IMG/VR virus record: IMGVR_UViG_3300010354_000086
Span: 1-63,767 of that record
Source: a virus
Lineage: Duplodnaviria > Caudoviricetes
Strand: one strand, 5' to 3'
Length of the DNA stretch: 63,767 nt
A model generated the notes under the pieces. It was not told where the DNA came from. It saw only the letters and a program-made list of their open reading frames with translations, and did not search any database. Made by a program: the position numbers and the translations under genes. Of this stretch, positions 2,868-52,667 are shown one piece after another (position 1 is the stretch's first letter; each line of letters opens with the position of its first letter).

Positions 2868-5800
2868 ATGGAATTTCTTAGAAGATCGAGCCTGGTCCAT
2901 AATAAAAACTTTAATGATGATAGTATTATTGTTAAAGCAAATGGTGAGGTAGAATTTAATCCTCGAAATGGTATTGTCCGAATTAACGGAGATCTTATTG
3001 CGTCAGGCGATGTTGCAGGTCCTACAGTTACTAATGTTTTGTATGTAACTCAAGACGGTGACGATAACAATACAGGAAATGGTGAAAGCTCTAGTCAAGC
3101 TAAGAGAACTTTAAAAGCAGCTCTTGCTATAGCGCAACAAGGAACAACAATCTATGTTCGTAGTGGAGAATACTACGAAGATAACCCTTTAGTTGTTCCA
3201 CCTAATGTTTCTATTATTGGAGACAATTTAAGAACTACAGTAATTAGACCATTAAACGGTCCTGTACAAAAGAATATTATATTTGTATCTCGACAAGATA
3301 ATATTGTAACTATAACAACAAGTACCGCACATGGATATGTTGAAAATGACCGTGTACGAATTCGTTGCTCAAATACTAGCTTCGATACTGAGATAGGTAA
3401 CATTATTTCAGTAACATCAACTACATTTACCTATCGACAACTTGGGGCAAATGTATCAACTACTGCTGCTACCGGGTATGCATGGAAAGGTGTAGATTTA
3501 TTTCATGTAAACAGTGCTTGCTATCTAAATGGCATGGTATTTAAAGGACTACGAGCTCCGGGGTATTGTGTTAATATAGATTTTAATGCTATCGTAGACA
3601 CATCTCCTTATGTTCAAAACTGTTCAAATATTAATGGTCCTTGGATGCGAAATGGAACCGAATGGATTCCATTTCAAACAGAACAACCTGATATTAACGG
3701 AAATATGGTTACAGGGCCACGACCATTATTAGACAGTGAAATTCAATTAGGTCAGACCAGTGTTTATGGTATAGATACTGAAGGTGCAGGAGGCGGCATG
3801 TTAATTGATGGGGACCGATACCATCCCCAAAGTCCTATTAAATCTATGGTAGGAGATGCATTCACTCAAGTTGCTCAAGGTGGCATTGGATTCCATATTA
3901 GTAACTTTGGATATATGCAGTTAGTATCATGCTTTGCTGTATTTTGTGACAAGGCCTTTTATACAACCAATGGTGGATATTTAAGCATTTCGAACTCAGT
4001 TGCTGATTTTGGAAACTATGCTTTTGTTGCAGATGGTTATTACCCCATTCCTTATGCTACTGGTGAAATTACACAAAATTACTATTCATCCTGCGGCAGC
4101 GTTACAGTTATCACCGAAGGCACAGGCTATACTTCAGCCCCAACAGCTATAATTGATCCACCGACTACTGTTGGCGGAGTTCAGGCTACTGCTACAGTTT
4201 CTATAGATCCAATCTTACAAAAAGTTAATGCAATCTCGATTGACAACCCAGGAAGCGGTTATACTAGTGAACCTACAATTACAATTAGTGGCGGTGGAGC
4301 AAGTTTAGATGCAACTGCTCAAGTTAACCTCGCAAAGAATCTAACAGTACAGGTTAATAACTTACCTGGTAAACCTCAAGTTGGTAGTGTAGTATTTTTT
4401 ACTGGGGATACTACTGCATATCTAGTCACTGATACTAGTGCTTCATCGTTTACTTTACAATATGACGAACAAAAATGTCGTAGAGATGTTGGATACATAC
4501 TTGAAGCAGTGCTATCAGATATGGTATTTGGTACTAATTTACGAACACTGCAAGCAGGGCAAAGTTATTTAAGATCGTACTCTAATAAAGTTATTAGCCA
4601 GCAAAAGACACAAACTATAGCTGGTATTGAAAAAGCTCGTGATGAAGCTTTAGCTTTAACCAGCAATCCTACAGCTCAAACTTCTATAACAAACTTGTTT
4701 CAAGAAATTGTTGATATTATTGATATTGGAATTAGCGAATACGGTCCAGTATCATATTCAAATCCAGCAGGAGTATCTTCGGGTATTATTAATGCTAGAG
4801 AAATTTTAATAGCAAATACTGAATTTATCAAAGATGAAATCGAAGCTTGGATCACTGAGAACTATCCTGCATTAACTTACAACAGTACAAAGTGTCGAAG
4901 AGACATTGGGTTAATAATAGATGCACTAGGACATGACTTAACTTATGGTGGAAATTTAGCTATAAATGTTGTAGCAAATTCCTACCTTGAAGGCAGTGTT
5001 ATTAAAGGTGAAATTCAGGAAACTTTAGAAGCTTATGTACATTGGAAAAACATTGTAAGCAGTATTGTTCAAAATATTTTAATTACAAAATCTGCAACAA
5101 ATACTAATTCTCAAAACACTAGTCTTAGTGCAGGGTCTGCATCAGCTGGATCTATTTTAGAAAATTTACTACAAATTGTAATAGATGTTCTTGACTATGG
5201 AACTGGATTTGTACCAACACCAGATACAGATCCTAGTTTTTCTTTAGGCGACTCGTCTCTTAATACTGAAAGATTAATAATTTTAGCTTCTACATCTGCC
5301 ATACAAGATAATGTTATAAACTATTTAAATGATAGTGCTATACCAGGTGGGTCAGCTACAATCACAGTATTCCCAGCTATTACTTCAGTGTCAAAAGACT
5401 CTGAAGCATTTTTCCATAATGTATCTACAGTATCAACTGGAGCTACAATTTTTGAATATGTAGGTGCAGGTGTAACATATAATGCATTACCATTCTTCGG
5501 TGGTGAACCTGACCCAACTAAAGAAACTTATGAAGTTAATAACGGTAAAGTATTTTTTGTAACTACTGACCAAATAGGTAACAGCAGAATTGGTTCATTT
5601 TTTAATGTAAATGCTCTAACTGGTGAGGTTACTATTAACGCTGAAAACTTAAACCTTAGCGGTTTAGCAACTATTGGTCCATTTAAACGAAGTGGTATTC
5701 CGGTTGGAGTAGCTTTAAAAGAAGTTAGTAATAATGCAGGACTAATTTCCAGTATTGGAACTCAAGATATATACACAGTTCCAACACAGTATGCGGTTAG

Positions 5801-7580
5801 TAATTATGTAGAAAATAGATACCTTAATAAAATCACAGGAGGTACAGTTCAAGGACCAATTACTGCTCAGCAAGGCATAACTGGAGACTTAACTGGATCT
5901 TTATTTAAAGACGATAGTTCAACAATTGTTGATGCTGTTACAGGAAATATTTTTGGTAATAATTTAGATCTTACCGGCACAGCACAAATTGATAGTGATA
6001 CAACTATCGACGGGAATTTAGAAGTAAATGGAGATAGTATTTTTGGAAACTTTAATACTACATTTACTATTAATGGTTCATTTGTAGCAAATCTTGCAGA
6101 TAATCTTCCTGCAGTCTCTGGAAATACACCTGCCGCCTTAGAATTTAAAGAAAACTCAAATGGCTATTTAAAAATTGAAACAACTAATAGCTACGAAAAA
6201 ATTACTTTTGGATCTCTACCGTATACTGAGTTTTTGAACACTGCTGATTCAACATTGAGTAGCAATGGAGCAGTTAAATTCTTAGGTGGAGTAGGAATAG
6301 CTAAAAATCTAAATGTCGGAGCAGACTTTAGTGCTAGTGATAATGTAACTTTAGGTACTTTAACATCTGACCAGATTACTATTACAGGAACTATAAATTT
6401 AAATGTGCCTGACAATTCATCTACTGCTTTCAATGTAGTACAAGGATTAGATAACTATATCACTACTGATACAACAAACGGTTCTGAGAAGATTGAGCTA
6501 GGAGATATCACGCTTTCAGGATTTAAGGTTATAGTAAGAGGTCTAACTAACGCTACTGATAAAGACACTGGTGCATTAGTTGTTGAAGATGGTGGTCTTG
6601 CTGTAGAATTAGATACATATATTGGTCAAAACTTAACCGTTGTTGGTACAGCACAGATTCTAGATAGTATAACTGTCGATGGATATATTAATGGAACACT
6701 AAAAGGAGATGTAGTTGCTGATGATTCAACAGTGTTAGTAGAATCATCAACCGGTGATTTTATTGGACGCAATTTAACTCTTAGCGGAAATCAAATAATT
6801 CAAGGAACTAGTCTATCTACTTCTAGTGGAGCCTTTAATCTTTTAAATTCTAATGCTACTACGGTAAACTTTGCAGGTGCAGCTACTACACTAGAAATTG
6901 GTGCAGCTACTGGTACAACTAATATTAATAACAATTTAGATGTAGATGGGGACCTTAATGTTGATGGGAACGATTTAACAACTAGTGTATCAACATTTAA
7001 TTTAGTTAACACTAATGCTACTACTGTAAACTTTGGTGGTGCAGCTACAGATCTACAAATTGGCTCAGCTACTGGCACAACTAATATTAATAATAACTTA
7101 GATGTAGACGGTAATATATCAACCGATGGAACTAGCTTTTCTACCAGCCAGACTAGTTTCGATCTATTAGCTAATAGTGTTACTAGTTTAAACTTTGGCA
7201 CTAGTACAAATTTTATTACAATTGGAGCAACTACAGGTTCAACTACTGTTAGAAACTTAGTTATTGGTGTTGGTGGATTTGAAGGAGACCTGACTGGATC
7301 AGTATTTACTGATAACTCAACTCAAGTTATTAACGGTCAGACAGGAGATATATACGGTAACAATCTTACTTTATTAAATGATTTGTTAGTAACGCATGGT
7401 GGAACAGGAGTAGGAACATTTACACAGAATGGTATTCTTTACGGAAATAGTACAAATGCTTTACAGGTTACTTCTGCTAGTAATCCTGGTAGTAATGCAA
7501 CGTCAAGTTATGGAATTTTAACAACTGACGGAAGTAATGTCCCAACATGGACTGATGTGATCGACGGAGGCTCGTATTAA
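2868..7580 (+). CDS. Large fibre/structural protein with pectin-lyase-like domain and repeats
   Basis: LYVTQDGDDNN..RTLKAAL..IYVRSGEYYEDNPL..SIIGDNLR and SPYVQNCS motifs; KCRRDVG/KCRRDIG repeats; GSGYTS.PT repeats; fibre repeats; C-terminal IDGGSY. Confidence 0.8.
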   Translation: MEFLRRSSLVHNKNFNDDSIIVKANGEVEFNPRNGIVRINGDLIASGDVAGPTVTNVLYVTQDGDDNNTGNGESSSQAKRTLKAALAIAQQGTTIYVRSGEYYEDNPLVVPPNVSIIGDNLRTTVIRPLNGPVQKNIIFVSRQDNIVTITTSTAHGYVENDRVRIRCSNTSFDTEIGNIISVTSTTFTYRQLGANVSTTAATGYAWKGVDLFHVNSACYLNGMVFKGLRAPGYCVNIDFNAIVDTSPYVQNCSNINGPWMRNGTEWIPFQTEQPDINGNMVTGPRPLLDSEIQLGQTSVYGIDTEGAGGGMLIDGDRYHPQSPIKSMVGDAFTQVAQGGIGFHISNFGYMQLVSCFAVFCDKAFYTTNGGYLSISNSVADFGNYAFVADGYYPIPYATGEITQNYYSSCGSVTVITEGTGYTSAPTAIIDPPTTVGGVQATATVSIDPILQKVNAISIDNPGSGYTSEPTITISGGGASLDATAQVNLAKNLTVQVNNLPGKPQVGSVVFFTGDTTAYLVTDTSASSFTLQYDEQKCRRDVGYILEAVLSDMVFGTNLRTLQAGQSYLRSYSNKVISQQKTQTIAGIEKARDEALALTSNPTAQTSITNLFQEIVDIIDIGISEYGPVSYSNPAGVSSGIINAREILIANTEFIKDEIEAWITENYPALTYNSTKCRRDIGLIIDALGHDLTYGGNLAINVVANSYLEGSVIKGEIQETLEAYVHWKNIVSSIVQNILITKSATNTNSQNTSLSAGSASAGSILENLLQIVIDVLDYGTGFVPTPDTDPSFSLGDSSLNTERLIILASTSAIQDNVINYLNDSAIPGGSATITVFPAITSVSKDSEAFFHNVSTVSTGATIFEYVGAGVTYNALPFFGGEPDPTKETYEVNNGKVFFVTTDQIGNSRIGSFFNVNALTGEVTINAENLNLSGLATIGPFKRSGIPVGVALKEVSNNAGLISSIGTQDIYTVPTQYAVSNYVENRYLNKITGGTVQGPITAQQGITGDLTGSLFKDDSSTIVDAVTGNIFGNNLDLTGTAQIDSDTTIDGNLEVNGDSIFGNFNTTFTINGSFVANLADNLPAVSGNTPAALEFKENSNGYLKIETTNSYEKITFGSLPYTEFLNTADSTLSSNGAVKFLGGVGIAKNLNVGADFSASDNVTLGTLTSDQITITGTINLNVPDNSSTAFNVVQGLDNYITTDTTNGSEKIELGDITLSGFKVIVRGLTNATDKDTGALVVEDGGLAVELDTYIGQNLTVVGTAQILDSITVDGYINGTLKGDVVADDSTVLVESSTGDFIGRNLTLSGNQIIQGTSLSTSSGAFNLLNSNATTVNFAGAATTLEIGAATGTTNINNNLDVDGDLNVDGNDLTTSVSTFNLVNTNATTVNFGGAATDLQIGSATGTTNINNNLDVDGNISTDGTSFSTSQTSFDLLANSVTSLNFGTSTNFITIGATTGSTTVRNLVIGVGGFEGDLTGSVFTDNSTQVINGQTGDIYGNNLTLLNDLLVTHGGTGVGTFTQNGILYGNSTNALQVTSASNPGSNATSSYGILTTDGSNVPTWTDVIDGGSY

Positions 7581-15060: not shown

Positions 15061-18000
15061 ATGTCAACTATTGATTTCGTCGTAAAGAACGGCCTTGTGG
15101 TCAATGAAGATGCATTGATCAAAGATACAACAGATAGCTCAAGCAAGGATACCGGTGCTCTCATTGTAGAGGGCGGCGTAGGTATTGAAAAGAAGTTATA
15201 TGTAGGAACTGATGCAGTTATTGAGTCCGACCTAGCGGTTAATGGCGGCGATATAACTTCGAGTGCTACAACTTTTAATCTTTTAAATTCAACGGTTACA
15301 ACCGGAAATTTATTTGGTGCAAGTACAACTGTAAGTATCGGATCGTCAACTGGAACTACAACAATTAATAACGCTAACACTGTAGTCACAGGAGATCTAG
15401 CAGTTAATGGTGGAGATCTAACCACTAGTCAAACTACTTTTAATTTAGTTAATACTACAGCAACTACTGTGAATCTTGCTGGAGCTGCTACAGATGTGCA
15501 GATAGGTGCTGCAACTGGCACCACTGAAATTAACAACAATCTCAATGTTGTAGGAGATGTTGATATTGATGGTGGAGATTTAACTGTTAGCACTGCGTCG
15601 TTTAATTTAGTTAATACTACAGCAACTACTGTGAACTTTGCTGGAGCTGCTACTACATTAAACATTGGGGCAGCTTCTGGAACTACAACAATTAATAATG
15701 CTGCAACTACTATATCAGGAACTTTAAATGCAAACGGCGGAGCAATTGTAACAGACGATACAACCTTTAATTTAATTAATACAAATGCAACTACAGTAAA
15801 TTTTGCTGGTGCAGGTACTACTATTAGCATTGGAGCATCTACTGGTACTACTACTGTTAATAATAACTTTGCTGTAAACGGAAATACCACTATCGGAAAT
15901 GCCAGCGCCGATACGATTACTTTTAACGCAAATTCAGGTTCGGTACCAAACACACTAACTCTAACTACTGATGATGCAGTAGCAGATAATTTAACTTATC
16001 CATTGAAATTAAGCCATACTACTTCAGGAACCCCAGCAATCGGAATCGGGACCGGTATTCAGTTTATAGCTGAAACTTCAGCTAATAATAACGAAATTGG
16101 CATGATTCTAGAAACAATTACTACAGATGTTACTGCAAACAGCGAAGATTTTGATTTCGTTCTTCGTTTAATGAAGGCTGGAAATACCGCAGCAGAAGCT
16201 TTTAGAGTAAGTAGCACAGGTAACATTAGTGCAATTGGGGATGTTCAAATTCAAGGTGGAGATCTAACTACAAACCAAACCACATTTAATTTATTAAATT
16301 CTACTGCAACTACTGTCAACTTTGCTGGTGCCGCTACAGATGTACAAATCGGTGCAGGGTCCGGAACTACTACTGTTAATAATAATTTAACAGTTGATTT
16401 AAATTTAACAGTCACAGGTGATGCAACAATCGACGGAGACTTATTACCAAATGCTGATGATACTGGTGCTGTTGGGACAGCCGCTAAAACATGGAATGAT
16501 GGAAGGTTCACTAACTTAACTATTGATGGAACCTTAAATGTTAGAACTAAGTTAGATTTAGAAGACAGTGATATTATTGAATTTGGTACAGGCGGTGATG
16601 CTACTTTTAACTATGACGGAACAGCAAATACTTTTAGTCTAAGTTTAGGAACTGATGCTCTTAGTTTTATTATAGCTGATGGTGCAACTACAAAAGTTAC
16701 CATAGAAAAAGATGGTGATATTATTACCGCAGGTGATTTAGCGGTTAATGGTGGTGATTTAACTACTAGTGCATCAACCTTTAATCTAGTTAATACAAAT
16801 GCAACTACAGTAAGTCTAGCTGGAGCAGCTACTACACTTAATATCGGTAACGCTACAGCAGCTCAAACAGTTTATGTAGGCGGAACTAGCTCTGGTGCAT
16901 CAACTTACTATTTTGGTACAGGTGGAACTACTACTGGTCTAACTAAAACTGTAAACCTTGGTACAGGCGGCGGCGCCGGAAGTACAACTAATGTTAATCT
17001 AGGAAGTACTAGCGGTGGCACAATAACCTTAAATGCTAATGCTGTACTCGAGGGTGATATTCAAGTTAAAGGTGGTGATATTACCACCAATCAAACTACA
17101 TTTAATCTTTTAAACACAACTGCTACCACTGTTAATTTTGCTGGTGCAGCTACAGCTATAGAGATTGGATCGAGCACAGGAACTACTAATGTTAATAATA
17201 ACTTAGATGTAGACGGTGATATTAACATTGACGGTGGTGATATTACAACAAGTGTTACAACATTTAACTTACTTAATACTACTGCTACAACTATTAACTT
17301 TTCTGGAGATGCTACTACATTAAATATAGGTAATGCTACAGCAGCACAGACAATAAGTATTGGTAATTCCAGTACTGGAGCAAGCACATATAACTTTGGT
17401 ACTGCTCCTTCTGCTAATACATTAACAAAGACTGTTAACCTTGGTACTGGTGGAGCCGCTGGAACCACCACAAATGTTAATATCGGTAGCAGTGTTGGTG
17501 GTACAACTACTATCAATAGTCCAGCTTTTAGCATTGGCGGACAAATGACGTTCCCAACTGCTATAGCTAATCGACCTATTTTAGGAGGTGGATTTATTTC
17601 TCAAGAAACAGGTGACAGTGACCACGATATTTGGGGAATTTCAGAAGACTATTATCCATCTCATGCAACTGCTGCTAATGCCTGGGGTATTCGTTGGGAC
17701 AGTACAAATAATGAAATAGAGTATGTAGGCGGAGGAACTAATCGATTTGTATTTGATTTAGACAACGGTGATTTAACTATGACCGGCAATTTAAATTTAA
17801 ATGCTACATCAATGATTACTAATCAGACAGCGTTTAATCTTTTAAACACAACTGCTACAACAATTAACTTCGGAGGTGCAGCAACTACTGTTGAAATTGG
17901 TGCTGCTACAGGAACTACAAATGTTAATAATAATCTTGATGTTGATGGAGATATTAACATTGACGGTGGTGACCTAACATCTAGTGCAACTACTTTTAAT

Positions 18001-18642
18001 CTATTTGGTTCTACAGTGACTACACTGAATGCTGGTTCGGCAACATCCGGCACACTTAGTATTTTATATAATACAGCGTCGACTACTACTAGTACCGGTG
18101 CTCTAGTAGTCAGTGGGGGAGTTGGTGTGAGTGGTGCTATTCGAGCAGGTAGTATTCAAAATACGCCTATAGGGTCTACTACAGCATCTACAGGAGCATT
18201 TACCAGTTTAACTGCAAATGGAGCAGTGACATTTACTGCTGGCACAGCATCAACATCAACTAGCACAGGAACATTGGTAGTCACTGGTGGTGTAGGTATC
18301 AGCGGAGCACTTTACGCTACTAGCAAATCGTTTGACATCGAACATCCGACAAAATCTAATATGAGGCTACGACATGGTAGTCTTGAAGGTCCGGAATTTG
18401 GTGTGTATGTGAGAGGACACCTAGTAGACTCACATGTAATTGAATTACCCGACTATTGGATTGGACTAGTTGATCCTGAAACTATCACAGTTAATGTTAC
18501 ACCAAAAGGTCGTCCACAAGAGATCTTTGTCAAGTACATTAGTAATAACAGAATACACCTCGCAGGTGATGATATCGACTGTTATTTTATTGTCTATGCA
18601 GAACGCAAAGATATTAATAAGATTGAGGTAGAAGGTGAATAA
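15061..18642 (+). CDS. Tail fibre with tandem repeats and C-terminal chaperone-like domain
   Basis: N-terminal DFVVKNGL; many G.L.V.GGD.T...TFNL.NT.ATT.NF.GAAT repeats; GAL.V.GGVG motifs; C-terminal KSFDIEHP..LRHGSLEGPE..VYVRG resembling intramolecular chaperone domains. Confidence 0.8.
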   Translation: MSTIDFVVKNGLVVNEDALIKDTTDSSSKDTGALIVEGGVGIEKKLYVGTDAVIESDLAVNGGDITSSATTFNLLNSTVTTGNLFGASTTVSIGSSTGTTTINNANTVVTGDLAVNGGDLTTSQTTFNLVNTTATTVNLAGAATDVQIGAATGTTEINNNLNVVGDVDIDGGDLTVSTASFNLVNTTATTVNFAGAATTLNIGAASGTTTINNAATTISGTLNANGGAIVTDDTTFNLINTNATTVNFAGAGTTISIGASTGTTTVNNNFAVNGNTTIGNASADTITFNANSGSVPNTLTLTTDDAVADNLTYPLKLSHTTSGTPAIGIGTGIQFIAETSANNNEIGMILETITTDVTANSEDFDFVLRLMKAGNTAAEAFRVSSTGNISAIGDVQIQGGDLTTNQTTFNLLNSTATTVNFAGAATDVQIGAGSGTTTVNNNLTVDLNLTVTGDATIDGDLLPNADDTGAVGTAAKTWNDGRFTNLTIDGTLNVRTKLDLEDSDIIEFGTGGDATFNYDGTANTFSLSLGTDALSFIIADGATTKVTIEKDGDIITAGDLAVNGGDLTTSASTFNLVNTNATTVSLAGAATTLNIGNATAAQTVYVGGTSSGASTYYFGTGGTTTGLTKTVNLGTGGGAGSTTNVNLGSTSGGTITLNANAVLEGDIQVKGGDITTNQTTFNLLNTTATTVNFAGAATAIEIGSSTGTTNVNNNLDVDGDINIDGGDITTSVTTFNLLNTTATTINFSGDATTLNIGNATAAQTISIGNSSTGASTYNFGTAPSANTLTKTVNLGTGGAAGTTTNVNIGSSVGGTTTINSPAFSIGGQMTFPTAIANRPILGGGFISQETGDSDHDIWGISEDYYPSHATAANAWGIRWDSTNNEIEYVGGGTNRFVFDLDNGDLTMTGNLNLNATSMITNQTAFNLLNTTATTINFGGAATTVEIGAATGTTNVNNNLDVDGDINIDGGDLTSSATTFNLFGSTVTTLNAGSATSGTLSILYNTASTTTSTGALVVSGGVGVSGAIRAGSIQNTPIGSTTASTGAFTSLTANGAVTFTAGTASTSTSTGTLVVTGGVGISGALYATSKSFDIEHPTKSNMRLRHGSLEGPEFGVYVRGHLVDSHVIELPDYWIGLVDPETITVNVTPKGRPQEIFVKYISNNRIHLAGDDIDCYFIVYAERKDINKIEVEGE
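15439..15653 (+). repeat. Near-identical 53-nt direct repeat within fibre gene
   Basis: 15439-15491 vs 15601-15653 (TTTAATTTAGTTAATACTACAGCAACTACTGTGAA..GCTGGAGCTGCTAC), 2 mismatches. Confidence 0.85.
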
Positions 18643-49570: not shown

Positions 49571-51034
49571 GTGACTAATTGTAGACTTATTATTAAAGAC
49601 GAAGTTAATATTAAATTTGAAGGCTTATCGGTCGAGATAAGAAGAAAAATAGCCAATCGATTAAAATATGAGGTACCATATGCAAGACACATGCCTCACT
49701 ATAAGTTAGGTAGATGGGACGGTACTGTAAGCTTTTTCGGGACTGGCGGTACCGGGTATCTAAACCATCTAGATATCATTATAAAAATTTTAGAAGATCA
49801 TGATATTGACATTGATGATATTGCAGATTTAAGAGAATCGCATAACTTTAATTTTCAGACTATTACAGAAAATTACTGGGCAGATCAAGGAAAAGTATGG
49901 CCTGAAGGTCATAGATTTGCTGGGGATCCAATAATACTTAGAGATTATCAATTAGAGGCTATTAATCAATTTATGACAAACCCGCAAGGGTTACAAGAAC
50001 TAGCTACCGGTGCTGGGAAGACTATCATTACTGCTACATTAAGTGCATTATGCGAACCATATGGAAGGACAATAGTTGTAGTTCCTAATAAAAGCCTTGT
50101 AGTTCAAACTGAAGAAGATTATAAAAATGTCGGACTCGATGTTGGAGTATATTTCGGAGATAGAAAAGAGCTTGGGCACACACATACTATTGTTACTTGG
50201 CAGAGTCTTAACGTACTAGACAAGAAAAGACTAGACCAGAATGATGAAGCTCTAATCGATTTAATTAATGATGTTGTATGTGTTATAATTGACGAAGTTC
50301 ATCAAGCGAAGGCAGAAGTTTTAAAGAAATTACTCACTCAGAATTTTTCTCGAGTTCCTATTCGCTGGGGACTTACAGGTACTGTACCTAAGCAAGACTT
50401 TGAATACCAAAGTTTGTTGTCAAGTATCGGTCCTGTAATAAATAGAATCGCTGCACACGAGTTACAGGAAAAAGGAATATTAAGCCAATGTCATGTAAAC
50501 ATTGTTCAACTATTAGACACTAGAGAATTTAAAAATTATCAAGAAGAATTAAAGTATCTAGTCAGTGACAAAGACCGGCTCAATTACATCAGTAATTTGT
50601 GTAATCAAATCAAAGAAAGTGGTAATACTCTTATACTAGTAGATAGAATAGCAGCAGGAGAATTACTAACTGAAGCTATCCCTGACAGTGTTTTTATATC
50701 AGGTGAAATCAAACTTAACGAGCGAAAAGAGCATTACGATGAAATTAAAACTAGTGATAAGAAGGTTATTGTGGCGACTTACGGTGTGGCCGCTGTGGGT
50801 ATTAATATCCCTAGGATTTTTAATTTGGTTCTTTTGGAACCCGGAAAAAGCTTTGTTAGAGTTATACAATCTATTGGACGAGGCATTAGAAAAGCTGAAG
50901 ATAAAGACTTCGTCCAAATCTGGGATATTACATCAACATGTAAATATGCCAAACGGCACTTGGGAGAACGAAAGAAGTTCTACAAAGATGCCAAATATCC
51001 ATTTTCAATCGAGAAAGCAAACTGGCAAACATGA
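49571..51034 (+). CDS. uvsW: SF2 helicase UvsW
   Basis: WDG, LRDYQ, ATGAGKT, DEVH, GLTGT, ATYG..GINI, QSIGRG.R, WDI. Confidence 0.93.
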   Translation: MTNCRLIIKDEVNIKFEGLSVEIRRKIANRLKYEVPYARHMPHYKLGRWDGTVSFFGTGGTGYLNHLDIIIKILEDHDIDIDDIADLRESHNFNFQTITENYWADQGKVWPEGHRFAGDPIILRDYQLEAINQFMTNPQGLQELATGAGKTIITATLSALCEPYGRTIVVVPNKSLVVQTEEDYKNVGLDVGVYFGDRKELGHTHTIVTWQSLNVLDKKRLDQNDEALIDLINDVVCVIIDEVHQAKAEVLKKLLTQNFSRVPIRWGLTGTVPKQDFEYQSLLSSIGPVINRIAAHELQEKGILSQCHVNIVQLLDTREFKNYQEELKYLVSDKDRLNYISNLCNQIKESGNTLILVDRIAAGELLTEAIPDSVFISGEIKLNERKEHYDEIKTSDKKVIVATYGVAAVGINIPRIFNLVLLEPGKSFVRVIQSIGRGIRKAEDKDFVQIWDITSTCKYAKRHLGERKKFYKDAKYPFSIEKANWQT

Positions 51035-51053
51035 AAATATTAACATTAGATGA
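50739..51053 (+). CDS. Candidate overprinted single-pass membrane protein inside uvsW
   Basis: Alternate frame gives MKLKLVIRRLLWRLTVWPLWVLISLGFLIWFFWNPEK..; the uvsW frame uses atypical G/C-ending codons here. Confidence 0.45.
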   Translation: MKLKLVIRRLLWRLTVWPLWVLISLGFLIWFFWNPEKALLELYNLLDEALEKLKIKTSSKSGILHQHVNMPNGTWENERSSTKMPNIHFQSRKQTGKHENINIR

Positions 51054-51537
51054 TCAAGCGTTTGATCTAGATAGGCTACCTAATTCATTTGAAGATGATA
51101 TTAGATTTTCTGTATTAGACAACAGTGATCCACATAATCCTGATTTCTTTTTTATACCATTAATCTTTTTAGAATCATTTAACAGTCCTGGTATAGAATT
51201 AAAGATCGGTAATGAAACAATTATTATGCCAGTTGACTGGCATATTGCTATAGGGTGTGCAGACACTGGAATTGATGTTGAAATTATCCCAATTACAAGT
51301 CTAAACGATCGCGGATTTGAAGCATTCTGTTATAATCCATTATCAGGATTTAAACATGAATTTAAATCAATAGAAATTACTAATGTTTACAATGACTTAA
51401 AGTGGTATTTTCCACGAACAAAGAGTAACCAACTTATAACAACCCCCCTCGATAACAGTAAAAAACCAAGCTGTGCTTTTTTTATTAAAGAAGTATCGAG
51501 GCAATGCGAACTTATTAATTATTCAAAACTGTTATAG
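51031..51537 (+). CDS. Hypothetical protein, possible degenerate Hint-fold
   Basis: Beta-rich 168 aa coupled to the uvsW stop. Confidence 0.6.
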   Translation: MKILTLDDQAFDLDRLPNSFEDDIRFSVLDNSDPHNPDFFFIPLIFLESFNSPGIELKIGNETIIMPVDWHIAIGCADTGIDVEIIPITSLNDRGFEAFCYNPLSGFKHEFKSIEITNVYNDLKWYFPRTKSNQLITTPLDNSKKPSCAFFIKEVSRQCELINYSKLL

Positions 51538-51546
51538 AGATTTATT

Positions 51547-51891
51547 ATGATATCAGGCAAAGTATGGGGCAATACAGAACTTGTAGAAGCCAATAGTGTA
51601 TTAGAGTTTCATCGCATTAATATTAAAGAAGGAGGTGTTTGTAGCAAACACAAACACAAACACAAATGGAATGGATTCTTTGTGGAACGAGGTAGTTTAC
51701 TTATAAGAGTATGGAAGAACAACTATGACTTAATAGATGAAACTATATTACGAGATGGTATGTATACTAAGGTAGCTCCAGGTGAATATCATCAATTTGA
51801 AGCACTTAAAGATACAGTGGCCTATGAACTTTATTGGGCTCAATTTGACCATGACGACATTGAAAGAGAAACGGTAGGTTATAGTAAATGA
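51547..51891 (+). CDS. Cupin protein (sugar isomerase/epimerase-like)
   Basis: KVWG, CSKH.H..K.N.F.V..G, V.PGEYHQF.A. Confidence 0.8.
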   Translation: MISGKVWGNTELVEANSVLEFHRINIKEGGVCSKHKHKHKWNGFFVERGSLLIRVWKNNYDLIDETILRDGMYTKVAPGEYHQFEALKDTVAYELYWAQFDHDDIERETVGYSK

Positions 51892-52667
51892 AGGTAGGAA
51901 TAGTTGGATACGGATGGATTGGAAAAGCAACTCACAAGCTATTTCCAAATGCTCAAATCTACGATAAATTTATTGAAGAATACAATCGCCCATTAGTTAA
52001 TTGTGATATTGCGTTTTTAGCAGTGCCGACACCATGCAACGATAACTTTGATCTCGATTGCAGCGCAGTAGAGGATGCCATTAGACATTGTGGATGTAAT
52101 TTTATCGTTATTAGATCTGCAACTCAGCCTGGGTTTGCAGATAGTATGGCTAAAAAATATCCTGATAAGAAGATTGTAGTCCAACCAGAATATCTAGGTG
52201 AAACTCCAAATCATCCATTCTTACAAATGGAATCTCGACAATTTATGATTATCGGTGGAGATCCTGAAGATCGACGAAGAGTTATTGAGTGTTATCAACA
52301 GGCATATAATGCCACTGTGTCTATACGACAAGTATCTAGGTATGAAGCTGAAATAATTAAAATTACAGAAAATAGAGCAGCATTTTATAAAATAATTCAA
52401 TGTCAAGAACTGTATGATACTTGTGAAGCTGCTGGTATAGACTACTATACTGTTCGAGATGCTGTTTACGGGGACGACCCTCGATTAAACCTTTGGTGGA
52501 CTTTTATATATCCTAAAAATAGAGGTGCTAATAGTAAATGTATTCCAAAAGATGTCTATGCTTGGTGTGCCTGGGCTGAAAGCCTCGGTATCAATCCCGA
52601 AGCGACTAGATCATTACTAAATTATAATCAAACCCTTATTAAGAGAAGCATTCATGGGCTCTCTTAA
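51888..52667 (+). CDS. UDP-glucose/GDP-mannose dehydrogenase family (short form)
   Basis: VGIVGYGWIG, FLAVPTP, IRS, PEYL.E, AE..K..EN, D.R, CIPKD. Confidence 0.85.
   Translation: MKVGIVGYGWIGKATHKLFPNAQIYDKFIEEYNRPLVNCDIAFLAVPTPCNDNFDLDCSAVEDAIRHCGCNFIVIRSATQPGFADSMAKKYPDKKIVVQPEYLGETPNHPFLQMESRQFMIIGGDPEDRRRVIECYQQAYNATVSIRQVSRYEAEIIKITENRAAFYKIIQCQELYDTCEAAGIDYYTVRDAVYGDDPRLNLWWTFIYPKNRGANSKCIPKDVYAWCAWAESLGINPEATRSLLNYNQTLIKRSIHGLS

Follow-up and report, generated by a model that had tools for sequence, protein, structure and literature searches.

A candidate overprinted membrane-protein gene in the +1 frame of a UvsW-like helicase gene of uncultured jumbo phages

Synonymous sites in a short part of a UvsW-like helicase gene, those under the first ~45 codons of an open reading frame in its +1 frame, are under purifying selection in a large and old group of jumbo phages. 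The explanation toward which we lean, with modest confidence, is that the +1 frame holds an overprinted gene, whose predicted product is a membrane protein of about 64 residues with a single transmembrane pass. The window, meaning the whole stretch of DNA analyzed, is the 63,767 nucleotides of IMG/VR virus record IMGVR_UViG_3300010354_000086 (Caudoviricetes), and the genome it comes from is estimated at ~375 kb (63.8 kb at 17% completeness). The helicase gene and the +1 reading frame are placed in the window as follows.

49571..51034, + strand: UvsW-like SF2 DNA helicase gene, 487 aa, host gene of the +1 ORF
50739..51053, + strand: +1-frame ORF, ATG at 50739, stop codon at 51051-51053, 104 codons plus stop
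50739..50930, + strand: conserved core of the +1 ORF, first 64 codons, wholly within the helicase CDS
50931..51053, + strand: tail of the window's +1 ORF, unconstrained, ~40 codons

The helicase matched Pfam ResIII, DEAD, and Helicase_C (the last at residues 340-440) as well as PHROG 16 (DNA helicase), and its best solved-structure match was T4 UvsW (2oca_A; E 1.8e-21, residues 34-470). With two RecA-like domains and T4 UvsW as the nearest solved structure, the product is predicted to be a UvsW/A18-type SF2 helicase. In the cultured phage collection, no member had more than 54% protein identity to it. The neighboring genes encode a member of a PHROG of unknown function, a cupin-like protein, and a UDP-glucose dehydrogenase-like protein. 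The +1 ORF lies under the stretch that presumably holds SF2 helicase motifs V-VI.

An initial annotation, made from the window's letters, had pointed to an alternate frame open for 104 codons from the ATG at 50739, and both the ORF listing and the translation contain it. Starting from a GTG at 50688, the same frame would give 121 aa, and it spans 127 codons from stop to stop. It overruns the helicase stop by 19 nt, lies otherwise within the helicase CDS, and no other +1 run in the window stays open for longer. Along the helicase gene, the first 366 codons contain 36 +1 stops and the last 121 contain none, where ~7.0 would be expected given the helicase protein and the window's codon usage. The exact probability of zero stops there is 5.5e-5, or 3.5e-4 when counted from the ATG. 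As a calibration of this null, 1538 +1 stops were observed window-wide versus 1551 expected. When all 58 window ORFs were resampled synonymously, a +1 run of at least 121 codons arose in 6.5% of 400 resamplings, and an equally improbable open run in either sense frame arose in 11% of 300. At a window-wide probability of 0.065-0.11, the ORF taken from the window alone is suggestive but not significant; the evidence that it is more than a chance run comes from relatives. Upstream of the ATG, we read one possible ribosome-binding element from the sequence.

50727..50731, + strand: weak Shine-Dalgarno-like AAGAG, 7 nt upstream of the ATG

This motif is a poor Shine-Dalgarno match. It is found upstream of only 2 of the 58 window ORFs, and GGAG is found upstream of 10.

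For the comparison with relatives, 227 distinct helicase genes were grouped by a tree built from the N-terminal part alone (helicase residues 1-375). The expanded set comprised a group A of 133 genes, including that of the window, and a sister clade B of 94; the first set comprised 90 clade B sequences (support 99) and 62 others. Over 63 codons from the aligned ATG, the frame was closed in 89 of the 90 clade B sequences of the first set and open in 47 of the 62 others. In the expanded set, the frame ran without a stop from the aligned ATG to residue 452, inclusive, in 88/133 group A genes versus 1/94 in clade B. After thinning to lineages, the frame was open over residues 390-452 in 43/61 versus 0/20. 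Group A genes carried +1 stops at residue 380 (73 of 133), 382 (27), and 384 (1) and none at 385-400; stops stayed scarce up to 448 and were frequent again at 453 (65) and 464 (49). The position aligned to 50928-50930 of the window was a stop in 65 of the 133.

An ATG was found within the open stretch in 131/133 group A genes, with a median of 67 codons from ATG to stop (40 in clade B) and at least 60 codons in 101 of the 131. The position of the first ATG varied among relatives. An ATG at residues 389/390 was present in 115/133 group A genes versus 86/94 clade B genes, and so was not enriched in group A; usual codon choice for Tyr and Asp accounts for its presence. In 45 of the 133 group A genes, the frame met a +1 stop ahead of residue 453, and in 11 it did so ahead of residue 429. 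Two genes, L252 and L253, carried four +1 stops each, yet had 0.81 identity to the consensus elsewhere. Since all four stops in L252 were TAG and fell at consensus Trp/Leu positions (406, 409, 419, and 422), we considered TAG recoding; however, three main genes are intact under table 11, one of them ending in TAG, so there is no sign of it.

We then measured synonymous constraint as the ratio of observed to expected codon identity in 15-codon windows, and a single element stood out.

50744..50875, strand not assigned: synonymous-constraint element, helicase residues about 392-435, ~130 nt

Among the 133 group A genes, the ratio peaked at 1.56 and exceeded 1.25 for window starts 389-418, against a baseline of 1.01 (SD 0.05-0.06) and a maximum elsewhere of 1.13. 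The peak was 1.66 in the first set (62 sequences), while clade B gave 0.80-1.00 over the same residues with no peak. Near-duplicate sequences were ruled out as the cause by thinning group A to 61 lineages with saturated synonymous sites in the N-terminal part (mean pairwise codon identity there, 0.45). The signal persisted in this thinned set, with codon identity of 0.62 at residues 392-435 and 0.45 at residues 453-486. A subclade of higher GC content was also ruled out, as N-terminal GC3 was 0.286 in the open group versus 0.267 in the closed group. Conservation followed the state of the frame. Identity to the consensus at synonymous codons was 0.80 where the frame was intact, 0.57-0.61 where it was broken, and 0.42 in clade B. 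In group A, synonymous-site conservation, of the kind that the initial annotation had proposed to look for, was seen across lineages that are otherwise saturated.

The codons that had first drawn attention to this stretch (GTG GCG, GTG GCC GCT GTG, TTG, and CCC) are present and are minority codons in the helicase family. In group A outside the region, GTG accounts for 15% of Val codons, CCC for 11% of Pro codons, and TTG for 13% of Leu codons, and Ala is encoded by GCG in 7% and by GCC in 20% of cases. Within it, Ala407 was GCC in 56/62 and Ala408 was GCT in 57/62, while Arg430 and Gly436 were at background diversity. This alternation of conserved and saturated columns points to site-specific selection and disfavors a recent sweep. 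Frequent +1 stops together with normal synonymous variability, the pattern named at the outset as contrary to a hidden gene, were found in clade B (94 genes) and in six cultured jumbo phages; they were absent from the window's group A (133 genes), where the frame is mostly open and the noted codons are conserved. Clade B thus shows neither synonymous constraint nor an open frame. It may have lost them, with gain in group A as the alternative, given that rooting with the six cultured phages was weak (support 82 and 27).

The constraint is confined to about the first 45-64 codons of the +1 ORF. It was weaker over residues 423-435, which underlie part of the second predicted helix of the +1 peptide (ratios of 1.16-1.68 by stratum). 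At residues 453-463, the ratio was 0.85-0.92 in every stratum, including relatives with a longer ORF, which rules out that a longer ORF carries constraint further downstream. Because there is no constraint past helicase residue 453, the 104-codon length in the window is not a selected feature.

To ask which frame the selection concerns, we counted codons that would create a stop in only one alternate frame. Over residues 392-435 in group A, 36 +1-only stop codons were observed versus 441.9 expected (0.08; 12-fold depletion), and 43 stop codons specific to the antisense -0 frame were observed versus 127.9 expected (0.34; 3-fold depletion). Control regions gave 0.69-0.84 for +1-only stops and 0.85-1.43 for -0-only stops, and clade B gave 0.52 and 1.19, respectively. 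Ile and Val codons ending in TA made up 32 of 1237 where a +1 stop would arise versus 124 of 612 elsewhere (odds ratio 0.10); the same odds ratio was 0.51 in residues 1-379 and 0.84 in clade B. A-ending codons were depleted in the helix-coding part, to 0.063 where they make a +1 stop and to 0.18 where they do not. A BLOSUM-based test of how well each frame tolerates the observed variants gave p 0.016 for +1 and p 0.10 for -0, driven wholly by stop variants. Non-stop variants showed no preference for conservative replacement in the +1 peptide (permutation p 0.93), and neither frame gave a signal from them. Clade B shows a milder version of the group A depletion of third-position A (15.7% versus 36.9% expected). 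The mostly open frame and the conserved codons of group A support selection on something beyond the helicase protein, and by these stop counts the +1 frame is the best candidate.

The strongest competitor, which we still regard as unlikely, is that the constraint acts on the nucleic acid itself, as a DNA or mRNA binding site, a regulatory stretch, or a codon pattern setting translation speed, with the +1 frame open only passively. It would fit the non-stop +1 variants, which carry no amino acid-level selection, as well as the start codon, which is not specifically conserved. It would also fit L252 and L253, which retain most of the consensus despite their +1 stops, and clade B, which has its milder third-position bias without an ORF. 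At ~130 nt, however, the element is longer than expected of a protein binding site or a promoter, and it has neither a conserved fold nor an Rfam family (no Rfam matches at E values up to 1). RNA structure was rejected as the cause after RNAalifold, run on 83 distinct intact sequences, returned only tiny helices (-6.1 kcal/mol over 210 nt); the z scores of the consensus fold were -1.45 (column shuffles) and -1.76, with five control regions at about 0. Selection at the level of tRNAs fails to explain why adjacent Ala codons are fixed to different synonyms. Within the stretch, the depletion of codons that create a stop exceeds that of other A-ending codons by a factor of 3 to 5, and helicase motifs I and II, equally conserved as protein, have no such signal, falling within the 1.13 maximum seen elsewhere.

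We consider it improbable that the selected feature is instead an antisense gene in the -0 frame, in register with the helicase codons.

50699..50917, - strand: antisense -0 ORF (rival), 72 aa from TTG

Such a gene would constrain the same sites, because helicase third positions are -0 first positions. The -0 frame is open over residues 392-435 in 45/62 group A sequences and in 23/90 of clade B, and the depletion of -0-specific stops described above is restricted to group A. The Gln433 codon is CAA, which reads as TTG on the opposite strand, in 49/62 group A sequences, and the minus strand has a promoter-like site at 50952-50925, although the scan that found it gave 3 sites in total versus 3.5 (SD 2.1) in shuffles. 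Against this, the -0 stop depletion is 4 times weaker than that in the +1 frame, and the -0 frame has no conserved ATG. Stops at residues 434, 453, 455, and 456 (in 27, 10, 22, and 4 of 133 genes) break its upper part, with the frequency at 434 matching background Ser codon usage. Substitutions silent in +1 and not in -0 comprised 4 types in 39 sequences, whereas the reverse comprised 2 types in 8 sequences. The -0 peptide is Asn/Thr/His-rich and of low complexity, and the genes of the window are nearly all on the + strand.

Three public runs contained small shares, as unstranded contigs. Contigs from relatives matched the window only at about 50750-50930 and diverged on both sides. One 253-nt contig, at least 99% identical to 50931-51183, came from an RNA library; it carries no strand information and does not prove transcription. 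More improbable still is concerted evolution, in which recombination or gene conversion between coinfecting relatives homogenizes their most alike stretch without a second function: the contigs that diverge on both sides and the coincidence of the island with the most conserved protein segment would agree with it, but saturated and near-invariant synonymous columns alternate and the same columns vary in all subclades, clade B is equally conserved as protein and has no island, and conversion predicts no extra avoidance of +1 stops.

Returning to the overprinted +1 gene, we inspected the peptide it would encode. The basic N terminus, the Trp-rich hydrophobic stretch, and the charged helix described in the initial annotation are all in the translated peptide.

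50766..50837, + strand: predicted transmembrane helix of the +1 peptide, peptide residues about 10-33, from hydropathy
50841..50900, + strand: predicted charged, amphipathic second helix of the +1 peptide, from the peptide sequence and AlphaFold2 (helix 35-58)

Over the first helix, mean Kyte-Doolittle hydropathy was 1.66 for the window's peptide and 1.77 for group A, compared to 0.18 (SD 0.63) under synonymous resampling. Weaker hydrophobicity was also found in clade B, which has no ORF (1.34 versus 0.02 expected), so the "membrane helix" is partly a by-product of the helicase sequence. In an alignment of 46 peptides (A1), mean column identity was 72%, and AlphaFold2 run on it gave helices at residues 2-33 and 35-58 (mean pLDDT 77.5, pTM 0.38). 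We did not count these helices as evidence, because any hydrophobic helix would yield them.

Searches of Pfam and PHROGs with the +1 peptide returned no families, and the ESM Atlas gave a best score of 0.80 and a recognition value of 1711, both at chance level. A word-based protein search returned one match, itself a +1 reading of the helicase locus. A profile search of 1.84 billion proteins returned 14 matches, of which 13 read as this part of the helicase translated in its +1 frame; the weakest match, P0015 (E 2.4e-4), appears unrelated. Neither the word-based nor the profile search thus found a relative of the peptide outside the helicase locus. As for known classes, there was no holin match in Pfam or PHROGs and the locus is not in a lysis cassette, and the 104-aa translation has no Cys and hence no o-spanin or u-spanin lipobox.

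With an ORF in another frame of a CDS, reduced synonymous change beneath it, and a frame kept open, the locus appears to have the marks of an embedded, or overprinted, gene. In our model, the gene would have arisen de novo within the codons for the best-conserved segment of the C-terminal domain of the helicase. Ribosomes would initiate inside the helicase mRNA, at an ATG located at 50739 in the window and at the same or the preceding codon in most relatives. The product would be ~64 aa long. Its short basic N terminus, cytoplasmic according to the positive-inside rule, would lead into a single transmembrane helix rich in Trp and Leu, followed by a charged helix. In the window copy, an extra unconstrained tail of ~40 residues would bring the total to 104 aa. 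We infer +1 coding as the cause of the constraint, and likewise the membrane location and the topology, from these sequence comparisons. The initial claim of a hidden membrane protein under selection is thus sustained in part: conservation of the frame and of its synonymous sites in group A bears it out, while the hydrophobicity is partly a by-product, the length of 104 codons is not selected, and the antisense frame is often open too.

As to function, we would guess that the product is a small effector in the inner membrane, coexpressed with the recombination helicase, that acts, for instance, to exclude superinfecting phages or to time lysis in the manner of a holin or antiholin. More broadly, and tentatively, a de novo gene may have settled over the most conserved codons of a recombination helicase and been kept, along with the helicase, while other synonymous sites became saturated in at least 61 uncultured jumbo-phage lineages, and then been lost in the sister clade. 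Since the helicase mRNA would also be the template for the membrane protein, its synthesis would keep pace with recombination-dependent replication, and the protein could tie this phase of infection to a membrane event, such as the exclusion of other phages or lysis timing. As part of that reading, the depletion of third-position A in clade B and its +1-only stops at 0.52 of expectation could, with similar reserve, be the fading imprint of a lost gene.

Gene callers systematically miss embedded genes, and large phage genomes are presumed not to need them. In a genome several hundred kilobases long, the candidate overlies the portion of an essential-type enzyme that can change least; should it prove real, new phage membrane proteins arise by overprinting even without a shortage of coding space. 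The intact, truncated, and lost copies would form a natural series for studying two proteins that share one sequence. The element also marks ~130 nt of a helicase gene where "silent" changes are not neutral, which bears on recoding, on primer and probe design, and on dN/dS work with this marker gene.

Among known systems, the closest in architecture is the embedded two-component spanin of lambda, with Rz1 in the +1 frame of Rz (PMC6139136). Like Rz1, the candidate is a small phage gene (almost) wholly inside another in its +1 frame, of a kind usually missed by gene callers, and would encode an envelope-associated protein. Unlike the +1 peptide, which has no Cys, Rz1 is a lipoprotein of the outer membrane that carries a lipobox Cys. 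The gene that hosts Rz1 also encodes its functional partner in a lysis cassette, whereas here the host is a DNA helicase. We saw no partner and no lysis context among the annotated neighbors of the +1 ORF. Also unlike Rz1, the +1 ORF overlaps the most conserved part of its host protein and not a variable part. The predicted product resembles holins and other small phage membrane proteins in general form only (small, with one hydrophobic helix and a charged C-terminal part); unlike holins, it has no family match and is not beside an endolysin.

T4 uvsW.1 is presumably a separate gene adjoining uvsW. Its product is described, in the text cited, as a trihelical, potential DNA-binding partner of UvsW (PMC7824862). 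The candidate shares with it the form of a small protein genetically tied to the uvsW locus; however, UvsW.1 is not a membrane protein in another frame, and the +1 peptide showed no similarity to it, with no families found in Pfam or PHROGs. Across the main texts of a limited literature collection, no description turned up of a gene that overlaps uvsW or the helicase gene of a jumbo phage. De novo overprinted genes are documented mostly from small RNA or single-stranded DNA viruses with tight coding space, a pressure that a ~375-kb genome does not have. The candidate resembles the de novo overprinted virus genes that have been reviewed (PMC8227390 and PMC3494269) in being restricted to a clade, in having no homolog elsewhere, in lying over an older and widespread gene, and in the reduced synonymous variation beneath it.

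The window record (63,767 bases; G+C content, 36.6%) has an estimated completeness of 17%, which implies a jumbo-phage genome of roughly 375 kb, of which the record covers a part. T4 UvsW (2oca_A) was the best solved relative of its helicase (E 1.8e-21, residues 34-470). The cultured phages nearest by this protein share only 47-54% identity with it (Sinorhizobium phage Phosso, Agrobacterium phage Atu_ph07, the PA5oct group, and the GAP32/PBECO4 group). The gene and the open frame that overlaps it are as follows.

49571-51034, + strand: SF2 helicase, 487 aa (Pfam ResIII, DEAD, and Helicase_C; PHROGs family 16)
50670-51053, + strand: open +1 frame of the helicase, with GTG at 50688 and ATG at 50739, the latter giving 104 codons

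Four bases (ATGA, 51031-51034) are shared by the helicase stop and the start of the following gene, which encodes a 168-aa protein (PHROG 11279, function unknown); judged from read-through tails, relatives keep this order. Downstream (51547-52667), the PHROG matches are cupin or cysteine-dioxygenase-like and UDP-glucose dehydrogenase-like; these sugar or metabolic genes are neighbors of the recombination helicase.

The initial annotation had proposed an overprinted membrane-protein gene here. Reading of the ORF confirmed the 104 codons from ATG 50739, and the peptide features and unusual helicase codons both match its description. Across the first 366 helicase codons the +1 frame carries 36 stops, and over the last 121 it is free of them. 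We resampled synonymous codons by the window's own usage, a null that was calibrated (1538 +1 stops observed window-wide, 1551 expected). It predicts 7.0 stops in the last 121 codons, and the exact probability of zero is 5.5e-5. With 58 ORFs in the window, a +1 run this long arose somewhere in 6.5% of resampled windows and an equally improbable run in either sense frame in 11%. Taken alone, the +1 ORF is unremarkable for a scan across many windows. Antisense frame -1 supplies the two longest open alternative runs in the window (15061-18642, 188 codons, and 2868-7580, 173 codons); among the five alternative frames, it also has the fewest stops per codon (0.044).

Four collection scans yielded 320 loci. 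After removal of three with incomplete matches or N and collapsing of identical copies, 227 distinct helicase genes remained, including that of the window, whose closest relative was not above 76% protein identity. Frequent stops in homologs, which would have spoken against the proposed gene, were at first sight what we found: each of the first 80 loci had 2 to 12 stops across the aligned 121 codons, and only 1/151 homologs was stop-free from the aligned ATG to the helicase end. However, alignment of the +1 translations revealed a subset with a nearly identical peptide of ~64 codons, starting at an ATG that aligns with 50736/50739. To avoid circularity, groups were taken from a tree of helicase residues 1 to 375 only. 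Group A, which includes the window, comprised 62 and later 133 genes and is mostly open in +1 (47/62, then 88/133). Clade B (90, later 94 genes) is well supported and almost wholly closed.

Synonymous constraint was measured as codon identity at columns where two genes share the same degenerate amino acid, divided by the identity expected for it from the rest of the gene. The group A ratio was 1.01 along the gene (standard deviation, 0.05), with a maximum of 1.13 outside an island where it exceeded 1.25 (15-codon windows starting at residues 389 to 418). It peaked at 1.56 with 133 genes (1.66 with the first 62), while clade B gave 0.80 to 1.00 in the same windows. Normal synonymous variability, the other sign of a spurious gene, thus holds in clade B and fails in group A. 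The minority codons first singled out in the window are among those held fixed across group A: GTG at Val401 (45/62) and Val406 (46/62), GCG at Ala402 (44/62), GCC at Ala407 (56/62), GCT at Ala408 (57/62), and CCC at Pro424 (46/62). After thinning to 61 group A lineages with saturated N-terminal synonymous sites (mean identity, 0.45), codon identity was 0.62 at residues 392 to 435 and 0.45 downstream, and the +1 frame was open through residue 452 in 43/61 versus 0/20 thinned B lineages. Contigs of further relatives from public runs match the window only at ~50750-50930, which agrees with the island but is no independent test of it. Constraint is absent past residue 453 in every stratum, and codons 65 to 104 of the window's +1 ORF are a chance extension.

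Several observations weaken the reading as a gene. No good ribosome-binding site was found for the +1 ATG, whose frequency in clade B equals that in group A. One third of group A genes have some +1 stop ahead of residue 453. Two group A relatives, L252 and L253, have four +1 stops apiece, all TAG at consensus Trp/Leu positions 406, 409, 419, and 422 (L252 locus, ~1757-2032), and are otherwise near the group consensus (0.81 identical). At residues 399 to 435, 7/10 of their differences from consensus exchange a codon for one ending in A, a pattern that resembles recent release from constraint but can also be read as counting against an ORF-based constraint. The 2.6 kb of L252 examined gave no indication that TAG is recoded. 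Among variants that make no stop, there was no sign of amino acid-level selection.

A non-coding constraint could also produce such an island, and we consider this rather unlikely. A conserved RNA fold was unsupported (consensus, -6.1 kcal/mol over 210 nt; z -1.45 against column shuffles), and an Rfam search of the region gave zero matches. An antisense ORF (50699-50917, - strand, 72 aa) in register with the helicase codons, the -0 frame, would account for the island too. The third position of helicase codons is where nearly any change alters the +1 or the -0 protein, so both frames predict it. Over the island, +1 is open in 55/62 group A genes, -0 in 45/62, and the other three in 0 to 2. However, group A codons that make a stop only in +1 numbered 36 versus 441.9 expected (0.08; control regions, 0.69 to 0.84), whereas those that do so only in -0 were depleted only to 0.34 (43 versus 127.9; control regions, 0.85 to 1.43). 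In 27/133 genes, -0 is interrupted by a stop at residue 434, and this frame lacks a conserved ATG. In the group A island, Ile/Val codons ending in TA were used in 2.6% of cases where the next base completes a +1 stop versus 20% otherwise (odds ratio, 0.10, compared with 0.51 elsewhere in the gene and 0.84 in clade B). In the helix-coding part, A-ending codons were depleted to 0.063 where they make a +1 stop and to 0.18 where they do not. The ORF outline is also consistent. Group A +1 stops crowd residues 380 and 382, occur in just 1/133 genes between 383 and 400 (at 384), stay rare up to 448, and then crowd at 453 and 464. An ATG lies within the open stretch in 131/133, and the median ATG-to-stop length is 67 codons versus 40 in clade B. 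Stop depletion, codon context, and this outline favor +1 over -0, and we regard the antisense ORF as improbable. Concerted evolution is more improbable still, as conserved island columns are interleaved with columns of background diversity and it is the same columns that vary in every subclade, a pattern more in keeping with selection at particular sites than with a recent sweep or gene conversion.

At residues 1 to 379 of the 227 genes, TA-ending Ile/Val codons are about half as frequent before codons starting with A/G as before those starting with C/T (odds ratio, 0.51 in A and 0.44 in B), a general effect of codon context that reduces off-frame stops along the whole helicase gene.

Six cultured jumbo phages (~50% identity) have 1 to 5 stops in +1, and the peptide read in that frame is unrelated. 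Rooting on them placed a five-member A lineage first and B as sister to the other A genes; support was weak (82 and 27). If this rooting holds, the feature would be older than the A/B split and lost in B, and the mild depletion in B of +1-only stops (0.52 of expectation) and of third-position A (15.7% versus 36.9% expected; group A, 4.3% versus 32.6%) would be a fading imprint. The clade B +1 peptide is likewise hydrophobic; together with the A depletion, this indicates that part of the "membrane helix" is inherent to one-base-off translation of the helicase segment. Residues 392 to 452 of the 94 B loci may hold a relic of a lost gene or else an intrinsic property of the segment.

The putative protein has a core of ~64 aa with a basic start, a hydrophobic segment, and a charged segment. 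Mean column identity was 72% across 46 aligned +1 peptides. AlphaFold2 predicted helices at residues 2 to 33 and 35 to 58 (mean pLDDT, 77.5), which we did not count as evidence. The lack of cysteine means that it is not a lipoprotein spanin. The peptide matched no family in Pfam or PHROGs, and an Atlas search gave no convincing look-alike. Its relatives in the databases are this helicase region read in +1, except that the weakest profile match (P0015) looks unrelated; this confinement fits a gene born de novo by overprinting, or the absence of any gene. Two of the proteins (P0011 and P0012) switch part-way between the helicase and +1 frames, which implies that their contigs contain single-base indels, be they sequencing errors or real frameshifts. 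Three 122-aa versions from more distant relatives (P0005, P0007, and P0009) carry ~28 extra N-terminal residues, the +1 frame there being open further upstream.

Taken together, the hidden membrane-protein interpretation gains from the group A island and +1-stop avoidance and loses where the helix is partly inherent and codons 65 to 104 are unconstrained. From these sequence comparisons, an overprinted small membrane-protein gene is the best explanation, which we hold with moderate confidence; the remaining probability lies with causes other than the four readings weighed here. In the literature collection that we searched, no paper dealt with an overlapping gene in uvsW or a jumbo-phage helicase. 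In T4, the gene for UvsW.1 is a separate one, adjoining uvsW. PMC7824862 describes UvsW.1 as a trihelical potential DNA-binding partner of UvsW. Viral overprinting (PMC8227390 and PMC3494269) is the nearest concept. The nearest architecture to the helicase +1 ORF is that of lambda Rz1, which PMC6139136 places within the +1 frame of Rz.
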